DNA from: Parachlamydiales bacterium
GTDB lineage: Bacteria > Chlamydiota > Chlamydiia > Chlamydiales > JAJFMK01
DNA length: 34,028 nucleotides
Assembly (NCBI GenBank): GCA_963765145.1
Contig: CAVXVG010000025.1
Location: forward strand, 1 to 34,028
Direction: 5' to 3'
Part shown: positions 1,401 through 34,028 of the stretch, one piece after another
How positions within the stretch are numbered: the stretch's first letter is position 1
How the letters are laid out: each line of letters starts with the position of its first letter
Translations under genes and position numbers: made by a program
Notes under the pieces: generated by a model
What the model was told of the DNA's origin: nothing
What the model saw: only the letters and a program-made list of their open reading frames with translations
Database searches by the model: none

Positions 1401-1495
1401 CGCGAAGCGTTTGGAGTGCTCTACGCCCGTTTAGCTTTCACTTTTTAGTGATAAGTGAAAGCTAAACAGGAGTTTAGCACTCCAAACGCTTCGCG
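1401..1495. repeat. REP-doublet (REPIN)-like palindromic repeat 'A', intact copy
   Basis: Perfect 20-bp terminal inverted repeat CGCGAAGCGTTTGGAGTGCT (1401-1420 / 1476-1495) and inner IR GTTTAGCTTTCACT/AGTGAAAGCTAAAC. The right unit reads GGAG-T plus hairpin GCTAAAC-tcct-GTTTAGC on the minus strand. Related copies at about 5980-6355, 27811, 27925 and 31083-32914. Confidence 0.85.
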
Positions 1496-2412: not shown

Positions 2413-4092
2413 ATGGAAGCTGGTTCAGTCACATCATTCACACCGCAAGTACCCTCACTCGTCCGCAGTTTTAACTACACCTTCTCTGGAAAATGTGCTG
2501 ACCTTTTTGAAACCCATGTCGCCGGAAAAATAGAACACACTATAGGAGCCACTGCACTGAAAGTGGGTCGTGTGGTGGTTTACAACACCCTTTGGTTGCT
2601 AGCTCACATCGAGCAAAGCCTTTCGCGTAAAAACCACGCTCACCTCATCGCGTTTTTCTCCGATATGATGGCCGCTTCTCGCCTACTTCCTTTAAATACC
2701 GAACGACTTGTGAAGTGCCTAAACCATTTAGATCAGCTTAACTTAGCACCAGAGGGGAAACAGAGGATAGCCCAACTGATTTTGGATCAGATTGTGCCCG
2801 CCAAGCTAAGTAAAGATTTACTATTGGATCTCATGGTATTTTTAGGAAACGAGTCAGAAAAACAGCGCTCCTACCCTAAATTCATCCAAAATTGCTTCGA
2901 GCGATTGGATGAATTGAGATGGGGAAATAATCTACTTACAGGCACTGAAGCCTACCATCTTCTTTTCCCCATCTTGCAATTCTGCAAAAATGATACTAAA
3001 GACGACTTTAGGATCTCAGAATGTCTTTGGATAATTGAAAATAGTGAGTCTCAATTTTCTGAACAAGAGCTTCTTTCTCTTTTCTTTGCATTAATAGACT
3101 CTCGGAGAGAGTCGGCTGACCTGCGCCAAAACATCTTTCTTCCCCTTATCAAGTGGTTACCAAAGCATCTAACGCCCCTTACCTTCGATGAATGTTGCCA
3201 GCTATTGCCATTAGCTCTTCTTGATTATAAACATCATCTGAGGGCCGAGCTATTTTATCAAATTACTAGTCGCCTTCAGAACAAAGATTGTTCCATCACT
3301 CCCGAGCAGGCGGCAAACTTTTTAATTGAGCTAAGATTTCTCACGAGGAACATGGATGTTGATTTTTCAAAGCTTACGCCCGTTCTTGTAGAGTACTGGG
3401 AAAAAGAAGTAGCGCAATTAGAGACCATGAACGCTCAAGAACTTGTTGAGTTCATCAAATTACAATATCAACTGATTTACGCTCCATATGCTTTAAAGAA
3501 CGGCTATTCACATAAGACTTTCGACAATGACAACATATCGAGTGCCATCATTCGCAGAATGTCTTCATTAAATAAGCAGTTTACCCTTGAGCAAATAGGA
3601 GAGTGCCTCCCTCGTATTTCTTATTCCCTGCAGGAGGATCCGGTGTGGATGACTGAAATTAATGTTGCACTGCAAATTGAGCAGACAGTCTCTTGTGCCT
3701 CGATGTTTAACATCCTGCGACAATCCACAAGCCCGAGCCGCAATTCTTCCTGGTCTCTTCCAAACTATGAAGTGCAACCATTGCTTCCGCTTATAAAAGC
3801 TCAACTTTTAAAAGAGAGGACGGTTACAGGCCAAGAGTCAGCAGCCTGCATTGGCCTTCTTCTCTACATCCACGCTAATGGCCTTGGGGATGAGGAATGC
3901 TCTAAAATTGCAAAAGAGATCGTCCTACCTGTCCCGCTTCCAGATTTTTTAACTAGTAGCTATCGCGCAATTAACTTCTTTGAAAATGAACAACTCAACA
4001 GAGTCCACCTTTTTCTCTCAAAGCTCTTTCCACAAAACCACCCACAAAGGCAAGAAGTTTTAGAAGTTTACCCCTTCCATTCAAATTTATAG
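2413..4092 (+). CDS. Hypothetical all-helical protein, paralog 1 (possible secreted effector with degenerate helical repeats)
   Basis: 559-aa ORF with GGAG RBS. Leu-rich and clearly paralogous to 4312-5976 (shared VVVYNTLWLLAHIEQSLSRKNHAHLIAFF, FTLEQIGECLP, QESAACIGLLLYI). Confidence 0.85.
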   Translation: MEAGSVTSFTPQVPSLVRSFNYTFSGKCADLFETHVAGKIEHTIGATALKVGRVVVYNTLWLLAHIEQSLSRKNHAHLIAFFSDMMAASRLLPLNTERLVKCLNHLDQLNLAPEGKQRIAQLILDQIVPAKLSKDLLLDLMVFLGNESEKQRSYPKFIQNCFERLDELRWGNNLLTGTEAYHLLFPILQFCKNDTKDDFRISECLWIIENSESQFSEQELLSLFFALIDSRRESADLRQNIFLPLIKWLPKHLTPLTFDECCQLLPLALLDYKHHLRAELFYQITSRLQNKDCSITPEQAANFLIELRFLTRNMDVDFSKLTPVLVEYWEKEVAQLETMNAQELVEFIKLQYQLIYAPYALKNGYSHKTFDNDNISSAIIRRMSSLNKQFTLEQIGECLPRISYSLQEDPVWMTEINVALQIEQTVSCASMFNILRQSTSPSRNSSWSLPNYEVQPLLPLIKAQLLKERTVTGQESAACIGLLLYIHANGLGDEECSKIAKEIVLPVPLPDFLTSSYRAINFFENEQLNRVHLFLSKLFPQNHPQRQEVLEVYPFHSNL

Positions 4093-4311: not shown

Positions 4312-5976
4312 ATGTCCGTAGTTGATTCAGTCACGTCATTCGCACCTCAAATATCCCCATTCGTTCGCAGTTTTAACAACACCTATTCGGGGAAATGCGC
4401 TGCTCTTTTTGAAAGCCATGTCGCCGGAAAAATAGAACACACTATGGGAGCCGCAGCACTGAAAATGGGTCGTGTGGTGGTTTACAACACCCTTTGGTTG
4501 CTAGCTCACATCGAGCAAAGCCTTTCGCGTAAAAACCACGCTCACCTCATCGCGTTTTTCGCCGATATGGTGGCCGCTTCTCGCCTGCTCCCTTTAAACG
4601 CCGAACGGCTTGTGAAGTTCCTAAGCCATTTCGATCAGCTTAACTTAGCACCAGAGGGGAAACAGAGGTTGGCTCAACTAGACAAAGACTTGCTCTTAAA
4701 AGTTATGATATTTTTAGGAAAGGAGTTAGCAGAAAAACAGCGTTCTTATCCTGAGTTCACAAAGCGTTGCCTTTTGCAGTTTGAACAATTGAAAACCAGT
4801 AAAAATCCTTGCTCTGGTGGCGAGGCTTATCAGTTTATTTTCCCCATCTTGCAACTCCAAAAAGATGACATTTCTGTCGGCTTGAATATCTCGGAATGCC
4901 TAAGGAGAATGGGCGATGATGAACGGGCGGGGAAAGTAACATTTTCCGAACAGGAACGCCTTGCACTTTTCTTTGCTTTAGAGGAATCTTGCGGCGAACG
5001 GACTATTCCCTATCTAGACCCTTACATTTTTTCTCCCCTCATTAACTGGTTACCAACGGAGATTGGGTCCTTCAACCTTGACCAACTCTTACAGCTATTG
5101 TCATTAGTGCGCATGCAGAGCAGTGACGGTCGCTCTCTCTCTTCTCCTATCATTAACGAGATAGCTACTCTTGTTCAAAAAGCCCCCCTAACTCCGGAAC
5201 AAGGAGAAAAACTTTTAACGTACTTACCCCCACAAAATATATTCGCCACCCCTATAAATCTTCGAAATGCCTTTACACACTGTTGGGATAACTCATTGAA
5301 GCTGTTAGACACCATGAAATCACAGGAGCTTGTTGCACTCATTAAATTCCAATATCAGCTGTGTAACTCCCAACATCCAAGTCAATTGCCCCAATATTTT
5401 GATAATGATCAAACATCGGAAAAAATCCTTACAAAGATGCGCTCATTAATCACATCGTTTACCCTCGAACAGATAGGAGAATGCCTTCCTCTTCTTCCTG
5501 AGAAAAAACAGGATAAGCTAATCGAGATCTGCTTAACTCAAACAAAGCTTGCTCTACAATCTGAGCAGTTAGTCTCTTGTGTTTCGATGCTTAACATGTT
5601 GCGACAATCCGCAAGATACGGCCGCCCTTTCTGCTGGTCTCTTCCAGACGATCAAGCACAACTATTGCTTCCTCAAATGAAATCTCAACTTTTAAAAGAG
5701 AGGTCATTTACAGTCCAAGAGTCTGCAGCCTGCATCGGGCTTCTCCTCTATATTTACGCTTACGATCTCGTGGACGAGGGATGCCTGAAAATTGTGAAAG
5801 CGATCGAGCTACCCAACCCGCTTCCCGACTTTCTAACTAACTACCATCAAGCGATAGTCTTCTCTGAGGAGGAACAAGCAAACAGAGCCCACAAATTTCT
5901 GTCAGAACTCCTTCCAGAAGACCACACGATGAGAGAAAAAGTTTTAGATAATTACTTCTTCGATTCGAATTTATAG
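4312..5976 (+). CDS. Hypothetical all-helical protein, paralog 2
   Basis: 554-aa ORF with GGAG RBS. The upstream sequence CTCCTCGATGGCTAAAAAT...TAGAATATTTCTTTT is duplicated from 2351-2397. Confidence 0.85.
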   Translation: MSVVDSVTSFAPQISPFVRSFNNTYSGKCAALFESHVAGKIEHTMGAAALKMGRVVVYNTLWLLAHIEQSLSRKNHAHLIAFFADMVAASRLLPLNAERLVKFLSHFDQLNLAPEGKQRLAQLDKDLLLKVMIFLGKELAEKQRSYPEFTKRCLLQFEQLKTSKNPCSGGEAYQFIFPILQLQKDDISVGLNISECLRRMGDDERAGKVTFSEQERLALFFALEESCGERTIPYLDPYIFSPLINWLPTEIGSFNLDQLLQLLSLVRMQSSDGRSLSSPIINEIATLVQKAPLTPEQGEKLLTYLPPQNIFATPINLRNAFTHCWDNSLKLLDTMKSQELVALIKFQYQLCNSQHPSQLPQYFDNDQTSEKILTKMRSLITSFTLEQIGECLPLLPEKKQDKLIEICLTQTKLALQSEQLVSCVSMLNMLRQSARYGRPFCWSLPDDQAQLLLPQMKSQLLKERSFTVQESAACIGLLLYIYAYDLVDEGCLKIVKAIELPNPLPDFLTNYHQAIVFSEEEQANRAHKFLSELLPEDHTMREKVLDNYFFDSNL

Positions 5977-5979
5977 GCG

Positions 5980-6355
5980 TTCGCGAAGCGTTTGGAGTGC
6001 TAAACGGCCTTGTTGCATAATTGTTCACTTTATTCCTGTAGCCTTACAGGCTACCTAATTTATTTTCCAACTTAACCCGGGGCGTTGCCCACGGGCTGTT
6101 GCAATTTTGGCCTTTCAGGCCTGTGAAAACGTGTATAGAGATTTTCCGGCTGAAAGCCGGATAGTTGCAACAGCCTGTGGGCAACGCCCCAGGTTAAGGT
6201 AGAAAATAAAGATAGCAGTCTGTAGGGCTGCCGGAAACTCGAAAGATCTCGAGGCAATTACACAATAAGGCCGTGCTCCTGAGCCCGTTTAGCTTTCACT
6301 TTCACTGATAAGTCAAAGCTAAACAGGCTCAGGAGCCTCCAAACGCTAGCGCGAA
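5980..6355. repeat. Repeat 'A' copy interrupted by an IS903-like MITE
   Basis: TTCGCGAAGCGTTTGGAGTGCTAAAC, then an insert, then GTGCTCCTGAGCCCGTTTAGCTTTCACT...AAAGCTAAACAGGCTCAGGAGCCTCCAAACGCTAGCGCGAA. Confidence 0.8.
6006..6272. mobile_element. Non-autonomous IS903-like MITE carrying a long internal palindrome
   Basis: Ends GGCCTTGTTGCATAATTG / CAATTACACAATAAGGCC resemble the ends of the IS5 at 32915-34028. Preceded by GTGCTAAAC and followed by GTGCT. Internal IR at about 6060-6210: CTTAACCCGGGGCGTTGCCCACGGGCTGTTGCAA / TTGCAACAGCCTGTGGGCAACGCCCCAGGTTAAG. Confidence 0.75.
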
Positions 6356-9606: not shown

Positions 9607-9655
9607 GGAGTGTACTCCCAATTTTTGCCCATTAATTTGGAGTGTACTCCAAATT
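9607..9655. promoter_or_regulatory. Paired palindromic operator-like sites GGAGT-GT-ACTCC immediately upstream of the AAA ATPase
   Basis: GGAGTGTACTCC at 9607-9618 and AATTTGGAGTGTACTCCAAATT at 9634-9655. A third copy lies at about 10525-10545. Confidence 0.55.
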
Positions 9656-9716
9656 GGCTAATTTGTCACGGCAGCAAATTGTTTATGTGAAGGGATATCA
9701 CCAAAAAAACCCTTTG
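9631..9716 (+). repeat. About 85-bp imperfect direct repeat, copy 1 (copy 2 at 10522-10606), flanking the MNT-HEPN module
   Basis: Shared ATTAATTTGGAGTGTACTCCAAAT...CTAATTTGTCACGGCAGCAAAT..TTTATG.GAA.GGA.ATC.CCAAAAAAA(C)CCTTTG. Confidence 0.85.
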
Positions 9717-10521: not shown

Positions 10522-10606
10522 ATTAATTTGGAGTGTACTCCAAATGGACTAATTTGTCACGGCAGCAAATCTTTTATGCGAAAGGAGATCGCCAAAAAAA
10601 CCTTTG
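10522..10606 (+). repeat. About 85-bp direct repeat, copy 2, overlapping the 3' end of ORF 10549-10896
   Basis: Matches 9631-9716 with few substitutions. Confidence 0.85.
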
Positions 10607-24764: not shown

Positions 24765-27700
24765 TTATAGGCGGCTTTTGGTGGGGGGAACAAAGTGGGA
24801 AGCGTATTTTTCTTCCATGAGCTGCCTTGCAGCCTCTTTCTCCCTGTTATAGCTGATCACTTGCTCAAAGGAAGTTTCCGGCTCTTTGGTTGTATTTAAG
24901 TTTTTGTAAAAAGTGTCGCTTGCTTCTAGCTTGTCAAATAGGTGGTGGGGGTCGCTTTTTAATGCACGAACGAAGCGCCCCAATTCCTCTTTAGACAGAT
25001 ATTTAAAAATATAAAGCTCTGATGGGTCGATGCTATTTGGATCCGCATTCCTTAATTTTTGAAGTTCTGAAAAAATGGGTTTTGCAATATAGATTTTCTC
25101 AATATTTTGGTGGCCGACGGTGTCATAGAGCGCGTAGTGAGTAGATCCTTTCTCTCTTTGCTGTCTAACTCTCCGCTTTTGTATGGCCTGATTGACATAA
25201 TCCCCTTTGATGACAATGAAAGCACCCAATTCGCCAACGTAACTTTGCACATACTGTTTATCGAGAGCACAAAAGATTTGCCCAACCTTTGCCCATGTCC
25301 CAGAATCTGCACTAGCTTTCGTCAATTCGCTATCGCCAGCCCCTCTTTCAAAAAGATCTAACAATCCATCAAGAGCACGTGTATCTCCTTTCCTACCATT
25401 AATCCCTCGAAAAACAAAAGATCCGTTAGGCAAGTAGAGAGGGTCAAAATAGCGAACGCCTTTATCCTTAATGGTTTCTAGGCTAGATTGAAACGCCGAG
25501 AGAGCACGCAGCTTATCCGGCCTGCGTTCGTAGAATTCTTTAAAGAGCTTAGGAATATCTTCATTTTGGAGATTGATCTCAGCCAAGAGATCCAGCATTC
25601 TTCTTTTGATCACCCCCCTATTCTCATGCAAATGAAGAGGGAGAGCACTAAAGAGATCAGAAATCTCCATATATTACCTTCTTTCTTCTCCTTCATCATG
25701 TTGCGCATAACGGTCCCAAAGCGGTCCTTTGATCACATTCCAAGCACTTAAGAGCGCTGGTTCATATTTTATTGTTGACAACACTTTAGCCAAGGAAAAT
25801 TTCATCTCACCTGGAGTGCTCTCTCTTTTCATAAGAGGAATAAGAAAGTCTAGAATCTCCCGGTCCTCAATTTTCGAAGCATCGTAAGAATAGAGACCAA
25901 GTGCATGTATAAACGCATTTAAAACAGTAGGGTCGGCCCGACCGTTACTTACCAACGTCTTAAATATTTCAAAGATCCCGCTCCGATATTGACTTTTTAA
26001 ACGGGCAAAGTCGAGCTCCGAAAGAGCTAAAACAGCTTCCCCTAGAACATGCTCCATTTCACGATGGTCATTCCCGCTCGTAGAAATCCAAAGGGAAAAA
26101 ATCAGATTGAGAAGATGGGTTTCATCAGCATCTGGATCGTGAAGGATTTGGGTTTTCTTTAATAAGGTCAGGGCGCTTTTAAGAACTGGTGCTGCCACCC
26201 TCCCACCGCTAGCATGTTTTAACAATTCACTGACCAATTGCAACCCTTTTCTGTCTCTGAACAAAACAAAACCATTCAACAACCATTGCTGCTCTTCTAC
26301 AGGTAAAGATAAAAATTGATCAACGGTCTCCGGCATTCGCGTTTTTTTATCATCTAAAAATTGGTCTTCAACATCTTTTATATCATCACAATTTTGTATA
26401 GCCACTAACAGTTTATTGAATATTTCGTTATTTTTCTCGTCGCCATTGCCTGGGTTGCATGAGTGAAGAATGAGATGTAACACTCTTCTCATCAATTCGC
26501 TAGAAATGTGCAATTTATGGTTCATTTTAATGGATTCTAATATACAAGATACATCATACAAGCCACTGTAATCGGGTAAAGATGACATATCTAGCCGTTG
26601 CTTAGCAGCAAACCTCTTAACAGAAAAGCAATAATCTAAGCACACATCAATAAAAGAATTTAAATCGGCATTGTCAATAATCCGCTCTTGGAAGTTCTTA
26701 GAACAAAAGTTGAGGACTAATAACAAGCTGATCTTGCGGCTCTCTTCTGACCCCAATTGCTCAGACCCATGATACGGCGTATTCATCCACCGTACATCTT
26801 CTGATTCAACATATTTCTTTCCGGATGGCGTATTTAACCATGAGGCTATCCCTTTGTAGATAGGCGCCTCAATAAAGGGCTCTAAACAACGCAACAATCC
26901 ATCTGTCCCTTGAAAATCAAGAAATCGATTATTATATACTAAACGGTAGGCAATACTTAATCCGTCTGTATCTACTCCCAATGCGATGATTTTTTGGATA
27001 TTATCTATTGAAACATAAGGTGAATCGCTACAATACTCAACTAAAAGATCCGTAGGCGCATTCAACCATTCTTTGACATTTTCTTTATTCAAATGTTTAG
27101 CCATCTCAAAAAATTTATCCACACTTTCTAGAGGCCCATCACGTGATATTTCAACAAAGAGTCTGCGAAAAAAAACGCGCTGCGAACCTTTTGGAACTGA
27201 ATTAAACAGGCTTAACATCAATTTTTCATCGCCAACTGTCGCACCATCTCTAAGAAACTTTGCAAAAAAACTAATCTCCAAAGAACTATGAAAATTGTAC
27301 GAATAAAAACTAAAATCACCTAATTGCTCTACATTTAAAATAGGAGAAAACAACTCGACAATTCGTTCTTCTGAAAACCCAGGAATACTTAAGGCCTCTT
27401 TAAATAACGCATAAGCTGCTTGCCCCCCGTTTATTTTCTCCTTCTCTGCAGAAACTACAATTTTTCTTATCGCATCTTTGAGCACATCCTCAACCAAAGC
27501 AAATTGTGAGGAAGAACTTTGGGACTTTGGAAACATCTGGGCTCGGAGTTTTGCACATGGGCATCTGTTCCCACCAAATCTCTGAGATGAAGCTGCTCAA
27601 TGTCTTTAATAGCAAGCATCTCAGAGTTAGGAGCTTTAGAAGCTAAAGCAGATTGCAAGTGGTTCCAGATTTCCAATTCCGAACTTATTTGCTTGTCCAG

Positions 27701-27766
27701 AGGATCGATCTGCCCAAAAGGCTGACCATTCCACCAAGAAACTAAATAATTAAAAATCCCTGCCAT
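24765..27766 (-). CDS. Large orphan protein, paralog A, in three pieces (frameshift near 27550, in-frame TAA at 25674-25676), with possible ART-fold C-terminal domain
   Basis: ORFs 27467-27790, 25674-27536 and 24765-25670 together are colinear with 28106-30968. Likely start MAGIFNYLVSWW at 27766. Confidence 0.75.
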
Positions 27767-27897
27767 GGTTTTATATTCAAATAAAACCATTAATTTAATG
27801 TTAATTACCTCGCGAAGCGTTTGGAATTATTGCAATTTGATGGGGGCGCAGGAGGGCCTTCTTGGCCCACGGGATAGTGGACTAAGTAGTGGCCGAT

Positions 27898-27960
27898 TAA
27901 GGTAAAATTGCCTTTACTCCGCAGCGCGTTTGGAGTGCTAAACGACCTTGTTGCGTAATT
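27898..27960 (+). repeat. Empty IS1111 target site: left arm of repeat 'A' followed by an orphan IS903-like end
   Basis: TAAGGTAAAATTGCCTTTACTCCGCAGCGCGTTTGGAGTGCTAAAC-GACCTTGTTGCGTAATT, essentially the joined flanks 31055-31093 + 32619-32642. Confidence 0.85.
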
Positions 27961-28105: not shown

Positions 28106-30944
28106 TTATAGGCGGCTTTTGGTGGGGGAAACAAAGTGGGAAGCGTATTTTTCTTCCATGAGCTGCCTTGCAGCCTCTTTCTCCCTGTTATGGCTGATCA
28201 CTTGCTCAAAGGAAGTTTCCGGCTCTTTGGTTGTATTTAAGTTTTTGTAAAAGGTGTCGCTTGCTTCTAGCTTGTCAAATAGGTGGTGGGGGTCGCTTTT
28301 TAATGCACGAACGAAGCGCCCCAATTCCTCTTTAGACATGTGTCTAAAAATGGAAAGCTCTGATGGGTCGATACTATTTGGATTCCGCATTCCTTAACTT
28401 TTGAAGTTCTGAAAAAATGGGTTTTGCAATATAGATTTTCTCAATATTTTGGTGGCTGACGGTGTCATAGAGAACGTAGTGAGTAGATCCTGCTTCTCTT
28501 TGTTGCCTTACTCTTCGCTTTTGTATGGCCTGGTTGACATAGTCCCCTTTGATGACAATGAAAGCACCTAATTCGCCAACATAATCTTTCACGTAGTGTT
28601 TATCCAGGGCACAAAAGATTTGCCCCATCTTTGCCCATGTCCCCGAATCTGCACTAGCTTTCGTCAACTCGCTATCGCCAGCCCCCCTCTCAAAAAGATC
28701 CAACAATCCATCAAGGGCACGTGTATCTCCTTTCTTCCTATTAATCCCCCTAAATACAAAAGATCCTTTAGGCAAGTAGAGGGGGTCAAAATAACGCACA
28801 CCGCCTAATGGCATAACTTCCAGGCTAGATTGAAACTTCGAGAGCGCACGTAACTTGTCCGGGTTACGTTCATAGAACTCTTTAAAGAGCGCAGGAAGGT
28901 CTTTGTCTTTGAGATTAAGTTCAGCAAGAAGATCTAGTATTCTTCTCTTTATCACTCCTCTATTCTCATGCAAATGAAAAGGGAGAAAATTATAGAGATC
29001 AAAACTCCCACGCATCACCTTCCTCTCTTCTCCTTCTTCGTGTCGTGCATAACGATCCCAAAGCGGGCTTTTGATCACATCCCAGGCACTTAAGAGCCCC
29101 GGTTCGTACTTGATGGTGGCTAACATCTTAGCTAAAGAAAATTTCATCTCAAGTGAGGTACTTTCTTTTTTCATAAGAGGAATAAGGAAATCTAGTATTT
29201 CCCGATCCTCTATTTTAGAAGCATCATAAGAATAGAGACCCAATGCCTGCACAAATACATTTAAGATAGAAGGATCAGCCCGACCACTATTCACCAACGT
29301 CTTAAATATTTCGAAAATCCCACTCCGGTATTGGCTCTTTAAACGAACAAAGTCGAGCTCGGAAAGAGCTAAAACAGCTTCGCTTAGGATGTGCTCAGTT
29401 TCGCGATGATTGCTTTCCTCCGTAGAAATCCAAAGGGAAAAAATCAGATTGAGAAGATGGGTTTCATCAGCATCTGGATCGTGAAGGATTTGGGTTTTTT
29501 TTAACAACGTCAGAGCACTTTTAAGAACCGGAGCCGCTACCTTCCCACCCCCAGCTTGCTTTAACAGCTCGCTCACCAATTGCAAGCCTTTTCTGTCTCT
29601 GAACAAAACAAAACCCGTCATGAGATGCTGTTGATCTTGAACCGGTAGAGATAAAAATTGATCAATAGTTTCCGGGATTTGTTTCTTTCCTTTATTCAAA
29701 AAATAATCTTCAACATCTTTTATGTCGTCGCAATTTTGTATTGCAACTAATGAAACATTGTAGTCTTTAATCCTTTCTCCGTGACACGATTCGATGAGAT
29801 CCAGTACTCTTGCAAGCAACTCACCAGAAAGCTTCAATCTTTGATTCATTTTTATGGCATTTAACGCATCAATCGATAATAATTTACGCCCACTACGGCT
29901 AAAAAAATAATCTAAATAAACATCAATAAACGAATTGACATGGTCATCATCGCGAATTCTTTCTTCGAAATTATCAAAAAAATCGTAGATCAATTCCATA
30001 CTCGCATAGCGCGTAGCTTCTGACACCAGGTATTTGTTCTTATTAGCACAGAAGGCTTCCATCTTGTGGGCAGTTTTATCACCGAGGCATTTTAAACATT
30101 CAATAAATTCAACTATTCCTATAGATTTGAGTAAATCTCGACGTCTTTTCAAGTAAGATAAACAATATTCCATTGTGTAAGACGACTTATAATCTTTTGT
30201 TGAATCTATGATTTTTTGAAGATTCTTCGATGAAGAATGAGGTGAAGTGCAATAATTTACTAAAACATTATCCGAATCCGAATTAATCCATCCTCCATCT
30301 AAAGAAAGAGACATCTCTAAAAATCTATGCATTCTTTCCGGTGACAGCTGACTTTGTGCTCCAAAGAATACTTTCATTAAAAAAATACGACGTGAATCTT
30401 CAGGAACTAATTTAATAAGATTAAACAACAAATCACTTTTACCACCTGTCACATCATCTAACAGCAAATGTACAAAAAAATAAACACCGGAAATCGAATC
30501 ACGATCAAGATATTCATTAAATTTAGTTATTATAGGCGAAAAAAGTTTGGCAATTTTTTCTTCCGGAAATCCAGGAATCTTTAAGACTTCTTTAAACAGA
30601 GCAAGCGCGGCATTGTCTGTATGAACCGAAGCTACAATTCTCGTTATTACATTTTCGATGACATCCTCAACCAAAGAAAATTCTGAGGAAGAACTTTGGG
30701 ACTTTGGAAACATTTGGGCTCGAAGTTTTTGTATGTGGGCATCTGTTCCAACAAAACCGCCAAGATGAAGCTGTTGAATGTCCTTAGCAGCAAGCTCATC
30801 AGAGTTAACACGGCGGGAATTTAAAACGGATTGCAAATGCTTCCAGATTTTCAATTCGGAACTGATTTGTTTGTCTAAGGGGTCGATCTGCCCAAAAGGC
30901 TGACCATTCCACCAAGAAACTAAATAATTAAAAATCCCTGCCAT
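28106..30944 (-). CDS. Large orphan protein, paralog B (about 940 aa if the frameshift near 28380 is repaired), with possible ART-fold C-terminal domain
   Basis: ORF 28374-30968 plus 28106-28390. Paralog A reads KLRNADPNSIDPSEL straight through this junction, which shows the frameshift. Confidence 0.8.
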
Positions 30945-31129
30945 GGTTTTATATTCAAATAAAACCATTAATTTAACATTAATTACCTCGGGAAGCCGAT
31001 AATTAAGTCGGTACCTAGGGCGTTGGATCTAAGGCGATTTCGCTCTCAAAAAATTAAGGTAGAAATTGCCTTTACTCCGCAGCGCGTTTGGAGTTACTAT
31101 GTGGATATAGGGCATAGAGCTTGAGAATG

Positions 31130-31185
31130 AACCCCCTCACATTTAGGTTGTTGTTTCTAACCACAAACAATCTAAGAGGGGGGCT
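31130..31185 (+). promoter_or_regulatory. Left-end hairpin overlapping the transposase RBS
   Basis: AACCCCCTC..TTAGGTTGTT...AACAATCTAA-GAGGGGGGCT directly before ATG 31188. It could sequester the RBS (inference). Confidence 0.55.
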
Positions 31186-31187
31186 CT

Positions 31188-32276
31188 ATGGTAGACTATA
31201 CAGGCCAATCCATTTTTATTGGGATTGACGTCCATAAGAAAACTTACAGTGTAACTGCCATCTTTGATGGCACGCTCATAAAGAGGGATAAAATGGCTGC
31301 TTGTCCTCAGAAGTTAATAGAATACTGTCAGAGGTTCTTCCCTAATGCTAAGATTTTTAGCGCCTATGAAGCTGGCTTTTGCGGGTTTGGTCTTCATCGC
31401 CAATTGGTAAAAAGTGGTATCCATAACATCGTTGTACATGCCGCCTCTATCGAGGTTAAAGCAAGAGATAGAGTGAAGACTGACAAACGTGATTCTTTAA
31501 AAATCGCAACGCACCTGTCGCGTAACCAGCTAGAGTGCATCCATATTCCATCACCAGAAAGAGAAGCGACTCGGCATATATCAAGGCTGAGAGAAAAGTT
31601 TGTTCGGGATAAAACTCGCCTGGGAGTACAGATAAAAGCTTTCATGAACTTGAATGGGCTGCTTGCTTATGACGATGAAAAAAGAGTGAACCGGAAATGG
31701 ATCTCAATTTTGCTAGGTGAACTTAAAGATGATTCCGATGGATCGTTTTACCTAAGAATGATGGCCTCTAGATGGGTAGAGCTAGATGAAAGAATAACAG
31801 AGGTTGAAAAGAGACTACATGTCCAGGCTGATAATGATTGGGAACTGGAGAGAATTTATCGAAGCGTGCCAGGTATAGGTCCAATAGTCAGCCGAACACT
31901 AATCAACGAACTTGGAGATATGTCGCAATTTAAGAACGACAGGTCGTTATACAGTTTTACAGGCTTAACCCCTCAGGAATATTCATCAGGGGAGCATGTA
32001 AGGCAAGGGCACATTAGTCGCCAGGGTCGACCAGTGCTGAGAAAGATACTAGTGCAAGCTGCATGGAGAGCAATCAAGGAAGATGAGGCTCTAGCTGAAG
32101 TATTTGAGAGGATTAGCCAAAGGACAGGAAAGAAAAAGGCAATAGTGGGCATGGCAAGACGGTTAATAGGGATAATTCGAGCTTGTTTACGAGAAAAAAG
32201 GGAGTATGTATGGAGAAGAGGAACAATAAATAACATTGTTCGACCAACAGTTAAGAAACGTGTCACAGCCCTGTAG
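31188..32276 (+). CDS. IS110-family DEDD transposase/recombinase, intact
   Basis: GIDVHK, YEAG and KTDKRD RuvC-like DEDD residues. SVPGIG, GL.P..YSSG (catalytic Ser) and GHISRQG in the C-terminal Tnp domain. Confidence 0.97.
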   Translation: MVDYTGQSIFIGIDVHKKTYSVTAIFDGTLIKRDKMAACPQKLIEYCQRFFPNAKIFSAYEAGFCGFGLHRQLVKSGIHNIVVHAASIEVKARDRVKTDKRDSLKIATHLSRNQLECIHIPSPEREATRHISRLREKFVRDKTRLGVQIKAFMNLNGLLAYDDEKRVNRKWISILLGELKDDSDGSFYLRMMASRWVELDERITEVEKRLHVQADNDWELERIYRSVPGIGPIVSRTLINELGDMSQFKNDRSLYSFTGLTPQEYSSGEHVRQGHISRQGRPVLRKILVQAAWRAIKEDEALAEVFERISQRTGKKKAIVGMARRLIGIIRACLREKREYVWRRGTINNIVRPTVKKRVTAL

Positions 32277-32415
32277 ATGCGCACTTGCGGCTGCGAGAGC
32301 AGGCCGTGTTTTGGAGTTTAGGGTGTGACTTTTATTAAAAGCGTTTCGGAAGAGTAGCTTGTGGAGTCTCTGATGAGATGGTCACGAATAGCAGATTGAG
32401 CCTTTGAGCTTTAAG
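32260..32415 (+). ncRNA. Predicted bridge RNA / seekRNA with target-binding and donor-binding loops (ends approximate)
   Basis: Two stem / internal-loop / hairpin units. Loop 1 carries GCACT (32281-32285) and TTTGGAG (32310-32316), matching the two target strands. Loop 2 carries AGTAGCT (32353-32359) and ATAGCAG (32388-32394), matching the two strands of the circle junction. Confidence 0.8.
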
Positions 32416-32595
32416 AGCAATGTTAGTCTGAAAAAAATTAAGGCGATGAACTTGCCGGGTTTTGTGCTGTCAAAATTATGGTTTTAAGGGGTTTATTAAG
32501 AAAAATAAGCCATTAATTTTACATGTTTTAAGTTGATGACATACTGGTTAAAATAGGCGTGAGAGCAGGTTTTTGACAACAATCTGAGGTGGGAC

Positions 32596-32618
32596 TTGCA
32601 AAAATATCCACATAGCAG
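32596..32618 (+). promoter_or_regulatory. Outward-facing -35 box (TTGCAA) that forms a junction promoter on circularisation
   Basis: TTGCAA at 32596-32601. Joining the right end to the left end places TACTAT (31095-31100) 18 bp downstream. Confidence 0.7.
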
Positions 32619-32626
32619 TGCTAAAC

Positions 32627-32849
32627 GGCGTTGTTGCACAATGCAGAATCGAAGCAAATAAGTGAATTTTAAAGGTTTAAACCACAGAGAACACAGAGAT
32701 CACAGAGAGAGTGTAAAAATGAAACCATGCTTTGGCAATATTTTTAAGCCTATTCAGGTTTTCCGACTCTCCTCTGTGGTCTCTGTGCTCTCTGTGGTTA
32801 ATCTTTTATAATCAGAGCCTTAAATAAAAATGAATTGTGCAACAACGCC
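32627..32849. mobile_element. 223-bp IS903-like MITE with a perfect 9-bp target duplication
   Basis: TIR GGCGTTGTTGCACAAT / ATTGTGCAACAACGCC and TSD GTGCTAAAC (32618-32626, 32850-32858). Cargo is inverted tandem 9-mers ACCACAGAG-AACACAGAG-ATCACAGAG / CTCTGTGGT-CTCTGTGCT-CTCTGTGGT. Confidence 0.9.
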
Positions 32850-32914
32850 GTGCTAAACTCCTGTTTAGCTTTGACTTATCAGTGAAAAGTGAAAGCTAAA
32901 CAGGAGTTTAGCAC
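32850..32914. repeat. Core of repeat 'A', both arms hit by IS903-like insertions
   Basis: GTGCTAAACTCCTGTTTAGCTTT...AAAGCTAAACAGGAGTTTAGCAC, matching 1429-1480. Confidence 0.85.
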
Positions 32915-34028
32915 GGCGTTGTTGCACGATACCCCTGACACGCTGCTAAAAGGCATGTCAAAAAAAAATGCATGAAGTAATCTGTTTTCGACTAAAAAAA
33001 GGGAAACTACTTCATGCAAGCTAGCGCAAACTATCAAATTCGCAACTGGGCCGATTATAACAAAGCTCTGATCCAAAGGGGAAGCATAACTATTTGGATC
33101 GAGGAAAACGCTCTAGGAAAGTGGCTGTCTCATAAACATACAAAATCTGCTGGAAGACCGGAGACATACTCAGATGACGCCATCCTGATGTTGTTGGTTT
33201 TAAGGGAGCGATTCAACCTAACATTGAGAAGTCTGCAAGGTTTTGCCGCATCCATATTCTTGCTAATGAGGTTATTTCTAACAATTCCTTGTTATTCACA
33301 AATCTGCCGAAGAGCAAAGACTCTCCATAAGAGCATTAAACGCCTAAGTAATGGGCCTGCCAGGCACATTATTTTAGATTCTACCGGCCTTAAGGTGCAT
33401 GGAGAGGGAGAATGGAAAGTTAGGACTCACGGCAAAAGTAAACGACGTATTTGGAGAAATTTCATATTGCGATTGACGCTGAAACACAAGATATAGTTGT
33501 TTGCGAATTAACAGATCATAGTACTGGAGAGGCAGAGCCAGCAGTAAGGATGCTCGACAAGATCCGAGGGAAAATAGATACGGTGCGTGGAGATGGTGCT
33601 TATGACCCAAATGTAGTGAGGGAGAAAATACATCAAAAAGGGGCCAGAGCCATTATTCCTCCACCAAGACACGCAAGGATTAAGGGAGCCAAAGAAGGAT
33701 GGGTAAAGGATCGAGATACAGACATAGCGAGAATACATGCTCTGGGGGATAGAGATACTGGTAGGCGACCCTGGAAAGAGGAAGTTGAGTATTACAAAAG
33801 GTCATTAGTAGAGACTTCCATGTTTCGAGTAAAAACGATGTTGGGTGATGAACTAAAATCACGCACATTAGAGACTCAACGCACTGAAGCGTTTTGCAAG
33901 TGCCTAGTAATCAATAAAATGAATAGTCTAGGAATGCCGAAGGGCGTTTGGGTAAAAAAATAAATTAGGATAGAAAAAGACCTTGTAAGGGGGTCGAAAA
34001 TTGTTTTACTTAATTGTGCAACAGGGCC
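32915..34028 (+). mobile_element. IS5 family, IS903 group insertion sequence (about 1114 bp; right flank outside the window)
   Basis: Ends GGCGTTGTTGCAC / GTGCAACAGGGCC resemble IS903-type GGCTTTGTTG termini. Preceded by GTTTAGCAC, the reverse complement of GTGCTAAAC. Confidence 0.9.
33014..33963 (+). CDS. IS903-group DDE transposase, frameshifted near 33458
   Basis: YQIRNWADYNKALIQRGSITIW, GRP..YSD.AI, DSTGLKV.GEGEWKVR.HG, WR/KFHIAID, DGAYD and YYKRSLVETSMFRVK. Confidence 0.92.

Follow-up and report, generated by a model that had tools for sequence, protein, structure and literature searches.

An IS1111-type insertion sequence, here called IS-A, sits at an AG dinucleotide in the arm of an abundant intergenic palindrome of a Parachlamydiales bacterium and has very probably been placed there by its DEDD recombinase in conjunction with a guide RNA that is predicted from the non-coding region downstream of the recombinase gene. 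The case is built on the element with its ends and AG core, on the family of target repeats, and on the covariation of guides with flanks across the relatives of IS-A. A guided mechanism, the targeting of REP by IS1111 members and the sharing of one REP position by two IS110 elements are already known; new here are an unnamed clade of elements and the repeat itself, together with a guide that fits the repeat variant of another host and three unrelated tenants of the repeat. The window, the whole stretch of 34,028 nucleotides that has been analysed (Table 1), corresponds to contig C25 in an assembly of 2.68 Mb (84.8% complete), in which IS-A is present as a single copy.

Table 1. Coordinates of the features discussed, in the window unless another contig is named
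Feature	Position	Strand	Remarks
IS-A, IS1111-type element	31092..32616	+	1525 bp including one AG core copy at the left end
Second AG core copy of IS-A	32617-32618		right junction
IS-A recombinase ORF (DEDD, IS110 family)	31188..32276	+	362 aa, intact
IS-A left subterminal inverted repeat	31097..31108	+	CTATGTGGATAT, 12 bp
IS-A right subterminal inverted repeat	32604..32615	+	ATATCCACATAG, 12 bp
Stretch spanning both predicted IS-A target guides	32264..32327	+	
Predicted donor-binding loop	32345..32400	+	
Left target-arm part	31074..31091	+	CGC-NNN-GCG mini-hairpin, then TTTGG
Right target-arm part, GTGCTAAAC	32618..32626	+	also the first of the two 9-bp duplicates that flank the miniature element
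223-bp miniature inverted-repeat element	32627..32849	.	ends as in the IS5-family element
Remainder of palindrome	32850..32914	.	second GTGCTAAAC, inner stem, loop, mirror arm
IS5-family element (NF033579)	32915..34028	+	to contig end; mirror position of the same palindrome
Neighbouring 864-codon gene	28374..30968	-	no known family
Empty paralogous repeat arm	27911..27954	+	upstream of the other tandem gene copy; a different miniature-element end follows
Complete empty palindrome of the target family	1401..1495	.	two arms, sites at 1410 and 1486
Empty repeat arm, then miniature-element end	5980..6022	+	
IS-B copy (L288)	C18:60087-61697		
IS-B copy (L303)	C27:238112-239722		
IS-B copy (L306)	C29:27679-29289		
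IS-B copy (L308)	C29:48882-50493		
IS-B copy (L310)	C29:153242-154852		

IS-A and the palindrome that carries it

An insertion spanning 31055..32642 had been noted in a sequence-only reading of this DNA; the element is real, and its exact extent has been measured as 31092-32616. At the left junction the flank ...GCGTTTGG ends at 31091 and is followed by AG at 31092-93, and at the right junction AG at 32617-18 is followed by TGCTAAAC, the position in the target being TTTGG-AG-TGCT within a ~95-bp intergenic palindrome. The recombinase matches PF01548 and PF02371, scores 213.8 bits with NF033542 (cut-off 140), combines an N-terminal DEDD domain with the C-terminal PF02371 domain and its SG motif, and possesses the residues D14, E61, D99, D102 and S266-S267-G268, which are invariant across 38 homologues. 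The subterminal inverted repeats form a perfect 12-bp pair with starts at 31097 and 32604; with a 10-bp repeat core, the extensions amount to 7 bp on the left (31092-31098) and 3 bp on the right (32614-32616), which is the geometry described for IS1111 (PMC11187229). Non-coding DNA comprises ~95 bp upstream and ~340 bp downstream of the gene. Judged from these characters, the assignment of IS-A to the IS1111 type is supported by recombinase domains, inverted-repeat geometry, the downstream non-coding region and the order of the predicted guides described below, and the same assignment in the earlier reading agrees with the recombinase profiles, the 12-bp subterminal repeats and the 7/3-bp extensions.

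The target belongs to a large repeat family. The motif TTTGGAGTGC, the outer arm of the ~95-bp palindrome with its CGC-NNN-GCG mini-hairpin cap, occurs 287 times in the assembly as compared to ~10 occurrences expected from an order-4 model and is preceded by G in 280 of these 287 sites. The base that follows is T in 232, G in 51 (GC in 23), A in 2 and C in 2 cases, with the TGCTA variant alone accounting for 178/287. With up to two mismatches allowed, 414 repeat arms are found, of which 146 are paired and 84 of those spaced by 80-99 bp. Open reading frames of at least 150 codons make up 81% of the genome by crude ORF calls, and 264 of 280 GTTTGGAGTGC sites are located outside of them; a position between convergent genes is the commonest arrangement (102/260). 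Insertion into a multicopy intergenic palindrome, as previously proposed, is thus borne out, and the empty sites that had been listed at 1410, 1476 (minus strand) and 5991 are all present. IS-A occupies one site, while 287 TTTGGAGTGC sites are empty including all 23 TTTGGAGTGCGCA (TGCGCA) sites. Matches to an 18-base arm are largely restricted to this genome, with 218 matches here, 4 in genome G001 and none in the remaining 59 of the 61 genomes searched.

Since the sites are intergenic, the repeat may provide a safe harbour for the element. IS-A lies ~120 bp upstream of the divergently oriented neighbouring gene, which is not interrupted, and could still affect its expression. In its intergenic location, its size of ~95 bp, its two inverted arms and the presence of hundreds of arms the repeat resembles REP doublets (REPINs/BIMEs); it differs in that none of the six Y1 transposase hits in the 84.8% complete assembly has a target-repeat arm within 900 bp, and no cognate RAYT flanked by the repeat has been recognized among them. 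Three of the Y1 genes judged RAYT-like by eye are located at C5:119344, C28:46907 and C29:104647, equally with no target-repeat arm within 900 bp. Two additional repeats have been observed in the window. A repeat of ~65-80 bp directly left of the target arm (31013-31078) recurs at ~10 places (on C2, C7, C8, C18, C19, C20, C21 and C29), often beside a palindrome arm, and an 84-bp direct repeat (9631-9714 and 10522-10605) contains TTTGGAGT as a perfect short palindrome, which is empty and a possible near-target for both guides.

A near-identical empty site at 27.9 kb had been considered the pre-insertion site preserved 3 kb away. The empty site exists and matches the rejoined flanks of IS-A in 42/44 bases, the best among 308 TTGGAGTGC sites with enough flank, although all 26 bases of the left flank are equally found at two other sites. 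The match is part of a 314-bp alignment of 79% identity which reaches into the start of the paralogous gene, and the site is therefore a paralogous copy. A literal pre-insertion allele has been rejected, as the similarity extends for only 19 bases beyond the junction on the right and then gives way to a different miniature element. The 223-bp miniature element adjacent to IS-A has an identical copy at C28:18-240, which also follows GTGCTAAAC, there without IS-A and 17 bases from the contig end. As to the genes of the neighbourhood, the long tandem pair (24765-27790 and 28106-30968, minus strand) gives no Pfam or NCBIfam match and weak HEAT-repeat leads below 0.9, and both copies are fragmented, with breaks at around 27500, 25670 and 28380, owing to decay or assembly error. 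A second tandem pair (2413-4092 and 4312-5976; ~555 aa) has no Pfam match and is 76-90% alike in blocks.

Core dinucleotide and predicted guide RNA

Relatives of IS-A in genome contigs were searched with an alignment, as a single-protein query gave no match, and the end survey covered 162 loci, namely 160 relatives, the copy in G001 and the copy in the window. Ends were located by end motifs; inverted-repeat scoring missed most loci because the repeats of the clade are bulged. A left-end motif like AGTTGCTATG was present in 134/162 loci, a right-end motif in 74/162 and both in 69/162, with AGTT(G/A)CTATG and CATAGC(A/G)G as the recurring left and right ends, respectively. The left AG is constant in the relatives, the right end shows AG or GG, and the following base is variable. 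Both junctions of IS-A contain AGT, and the boundaries had earlier been fixed to within this shared AG(T); they are now exact to the base, and the core is AG, because in the relatives the AG is retained and the base after it differs. An AGT core has been rejected, the T common to both junctions being a coincidence.

Among named elements, no relative of the IS-A recombinase above ~30% identity has been found, and unnamed copies on cyanobacterial plasmids are 45-53% identical. The relative in G001 (52% identical) lacks the left end and has a different guide and target. Further members of the clade reside in other repeat families (L118, L142, L121-L127, L146, L147, L177 and L139); target types include a CCCTCTCCC-type in gammaproteobacterial MAGs as well as a GATAGGCAGGAT-type and a CACAGAG-type in chlamydial MAGs, and in one genome seven copies occur at one common site.

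Downstream of the recombinase gene, the predicted guides are arranged in the order right target (32277-85), left target (32310-16), right donor (32353-32359) and left donor (32388-32394), such that the top-strand (right) match lies 5' of the bottom-strand (left) match, as in the IS1111 guide order. The putative left donor guide matches IS-A's own right end in 7/7 positions, and the putative right donor guide pairs in 6/7 positions including one G-T. Whether guides follow flanks has been assessed in the 69 loci with both ends; the flanks were long enough in 66 of these, anchoring succeeded in 64, and 48 distinct loci remained. Before any selection by hand, the left guide matched its flank in at least 6/7 positions in 38/48 loci and the right guide in at least 5/6 positions in 39/48, with shuffle maxima of 10 and 16. 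Regex-anchored guides were present in only 38/67 loci, and counts from an alignment were used, for which L042, L075, L076, L084, L085, L103, L135 and L147 were dropped as off-register or redundant and L037 was added (n=41). In this set, the left guide agrees with its own flank at positions -5 to -1 in 28, 37, 34, 37 and 38 of 41 elements (shuffle means 10-12, maxima 21-25), and matches at -9 to -6 are at background. The right guide, counted for data as well as shuffles in whichever of two registers matched better, agrees at +1 to +7 in 38, 35, 35, 33, 29, 22 and 19 of 41 elements as compared to shuffle means of 19, 18, 14, 13, 13, 10 and 11, whereby +7 does not exceed the shuffle maximum. These shuffle tests overstate the signal, since the aligned elements are kin.

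A consensus fold of the 41 guide regions consists of two stem-loop modules with 24 pairs, 19 of which show compensatory changes. Taken alone, the IS-A guide sequence is no more stably folded than its shuffles (z -0.7; -1.1 and 0.2), a search of the region against Rfam gave no match, and the guide pattern was encountered 0 times in viral contigs. From guide order and covariation, the target guides of IS-A likely steer insertion into the repeat.

By analogy to the work on IS621 and ISEc11, IS-A would excise as a circle with its ends joined, and the joined ends would form a promoter. The donor loop of the RNA would pair with the joined ends ATAGC-AG-TTACT and the target loop with TTTGG-AG-TGC, upon which recombination at AG would proceed in one orientation with no bases added; in this way, IS-A would have entered the more frequent TGCT variant, with five base pairs formed on the right side. 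A junction promoter of the type TTGACA-17/18-TANNNT is found in 69/71 predicted circle junctions of the clade, in part as a result of the way in which ends were selected. The canonical TTGACA-17-TANNNT is absent from the joined ends of IS-A and L037, and only TTGCAA-18-TACTAT can be discerned by eye in IS-A. In the contigs of four public runs, neither a circle nor a joint across IS-A was seen, and no contig spans the locus.

Repeat variants and the choice of target

The right guide of IS-A reads AG-TGCGCAT, whereas the occupied site reads AG-TGCTAAA, with mismatches at +4, +5 and +7. Position +4 normally counts, because 25 of the 29 elements that match at +1 to +3 also match at +4, which IS-A does not. 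As IS-A is a single copy in its assembly, multiple copies were assessed in other genomes. L037 (65% identical to IS-A) and L078 (51%) have guides that read TGCG and sit at TTGG-AG-TGCG in arms of related repeats. In G251, a genome of the same order and another family, with a relative 69% identical over residues 1-145 (a truncated copy), TTTGG lies before five left ends and TGCGC after five right ends (TGCGCA in four cases); these junctions come from different loci, each at the end of a contig. A sixth, truncated copy follows CCTGG. The guide region of the G251 element has not been found in its assembly. Occupancy in G251 follows availability, since TTTGGAGTGCG (TGCG) occurs 30 times and TTTGGAGTGCT (TGCT) 3 times there, as compared to 51 and 232 times in the genome of IS-A. 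In run X2, one contig (depth 2.9) contains a right end of 90% identity, after which come GTGCTAAAC and a plain repeat arm. With the occupied TGCG arms in L037, L078 and G251 on one side and the GTGCTAAAC of X2 on the other, both variants are therefore used.

Thus, a guide that reads TGCG(C), as had been read from the window, is supported by the guide-flank covariation and by relatives with the same guides. Equally, the suggestion that a related repeat variant might be the preferred site has gained ground in other genomes through L037, L078 and the five right ends of G251 in TGCG, with IS-A itself located in TGCT with a mismatch. The guide of IS-A fits TGCGCA best and was probably adapted to a host in which this variant prevails. 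Tabulation of flanks shows the same junction in L037, L078, G251 and X2, and the sixth copy of G251 after CCTGG departs from it. Counted by copies, IS-A (1/1), five of six left ends and five right ends in G251, L037, L078 and X2 are located at one position of the repeat, as are, at their own position, all five copies of the second element IS-B, described below; this is the pattern of a type 1 REP-targeting IS in the scheme of Tobes and Pareja. When the left junction pattern was sought in 401 genomes, 12 had matches, and those in 10 of the 12 were judged chance (single hits with no transposase nearby); the right pattern matched in 14 genomes, in 12 of which the matches were likewise judged chance.

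The acceptance of a mismatched arm would be explained if target choice depended not only on the guide but also on the mini-hairpin 5' of TTTGG as a structural gate, a possibility which we regard as doubtful. A triloop hairpin with a 3-5-bp stem directly precedes the left target in the window, in L078 and in 5/5 full left ends of G251, a hairpin gate has been reported for ISPpu10 (preprint 10.64898/2026.03.19.712850), and the rejoined targets of the clade fold better than controls (z of -2 or lower in 12/42 versus 1/29). The association is, however, confounded, because nearly all matching sites are repeat arms with a hairpin (280/287 after G); moreover, the 102-bp target of the window has a z of 0.4, 30/42 clade targets are not strongly folded, and in IS-B the hairpin is located on the opposite side of the target.

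Alternatively, IS-A might have arrived together with its flanks through duplication or gene conversion between repeats or tandem paralogues. The region is in fact a tandem duplication with mosaic repeats, and the occupied site is a poorer match to the guide than 51 available sites. This route is nevertheless improbable: both junctions are exact to the base with flanks that are not rearranged, the site upstream of the paralogue is empty, the X2 relative precedes TGCTAAAC at a different locus, and the first insertion would have been guided all the same. That the association of IS-A with the repeat reflects chance or an assembly artefact, which a single copy near a contig end in repeat-rich DNA with no public run spanning the locus might bring to mind, is hardly credible, as there are ~290 sites in 2.68 Mb, as IS-A's own guides spell the site, and as the same junction recurs in four other data sets. 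Guided insertion into the arm hence remains the preferred reading.

Other tenants of the repeat and known systems

A second IS1111-type element, IS-B (1611 bp between end motifs, 366 aa), is 26% identical to IS-A and is present in five copies of at least 99.9% identity, one of which (C29:48882) has a broken frame; an orphan right end is located at C21:174149. All five copies sit at TTAGC-AC-TCCAAA, which is the opposite strand of the arm used by IS-A, with an AC core offset by one base. The predicted guides of IS-B lie downstream in the same order as in IS-A, with a stable fold for the target loop (z -3.6). The left guide of IS-B reads TAGC, equivalent to the TGCTA variant at which 5/5 copies are found (chance ~0.09). 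Relatives with 43-57% identity keep the AC core, and their guides, as judged by eye, follow the flanks in most of the loci that contain both parts, with L301 as an exception. One relative with 48% identity, L292 (G431:C145), precedes TCCAAA and has a matching guide with a different left flank, flanks that suggest a related repeat in another family. Genome G053 (L305-L315) contains ~24 IS-B-like matches, several with common flanks, and at L313 another transposase-like sequence is inserted in an IS-B-like guide region.

The third tenant is an IS5-family element, recognized by matches to NF033579 and PF13737, terminal inverted repeats and the 9-bp duplication observed here; its reading frame in the window is split into two parts (33014-33496 and 33451-33963). 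We take the window element to be IS903-like and assume the 9-bp duplication to be an IS903 feature. Ends of the family, miniature derivatives included, number 130; GTGCTAAAC precedes 43 of them and its reverse complement another 26 (69 in total), further ends follow variant arms, and 3/3 full-length copies abut a repeat arm. An intrinsic site preference is the simpler reading for this family, since ends outside the repeats often follow similar 9-mers. According to Tobes and Pareja (PMC1525189), IS5 is only a loose (type 2) associate of REP, whereas here 69/130 ends abut GTGCTAAAC or its reverse complement. The arm might thus be seen as a contested landing pad, in which repeat variants are divided among guided parasites (TGCGCA for IS-A, TGCTA on the opposite strand for IS-B and the adjoining 9 bases for IS5) and a shift from TGCG to TGCT reflects guide-repeat coevolution with IS-A as a recent arrival with a lagging guide; we consider this scenario unlikely.

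Sharing of a repeat by guided elements has a precedent in ISPpu9 and ISPpu10 of Pseudomonas putida, all copies of which are reported at the same position of one REP, with an AG core for ISPpu9, a CT core for ISPpu10, a common preference for paired REPs and 57.8% similarity to each other (PMC1525189; PMC12288879). IS-A and IS-B differ from this pair in being only 26% identical, with downstream guides in both and with AG and AC cores offset by one base and on opposite strands. Closest in architecture to IS-A are ISPa11, ISEc11, ISKpn4 and ISPst6, which as described share the DEDD recombinase, subterminal repeats, 7/3-bp extensions, a long downstream non-coding region and the order with the top-strand match first (PMC11187229), and of which ISPa11, an IS1111-family element with a seekRNA, targets REP (Siddiquee et al. 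2024, PMC11187229). IS1111 proteins are given as 330-350 aa in the same source as compared to 362 aa in IS-A. In contrast to the ISPa11 group, the inverted repeats are short and bulged in many elements of the IS-A clade, and the repeat and the host are others. IS621 equally resembles IS-A, according to its description, in having distinct loops for target and donor, a core of 2 bp that takes part in all four pairings, a REP target, a natural target mismatched to the guide and a right guide that can be lengthened from 4 to 7 bp (Durrant et al. 2024, PMC11208160), but belongs to the IS110 group with the RNA upstream, the left guide first and a CT core (PMC11208160), and its recombinase shows sequence likeness to that of IS-A in the C-terminal part only (E 1e-10). 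In the literature no report on this repeat or these elements has been found; supplementary target tables could hold the clade.

With IS-A and its relatives, the pool for genome editing gains a compact AG-core bridge-recombinase clade with readable guides of 5+2+5 to 7 bases, for which natural covariation serves as validation, and the occupied arm provides a natural test of the tolerance of a +4 mismatch and of the hairpin gate. The convergence of three unrelated elements on ~12 bases within a single repeat broadens the precedent of ISPpu9 and ISPpu10 to recombinases that are much more distantly related and, probably, to environmental chlamydiae.
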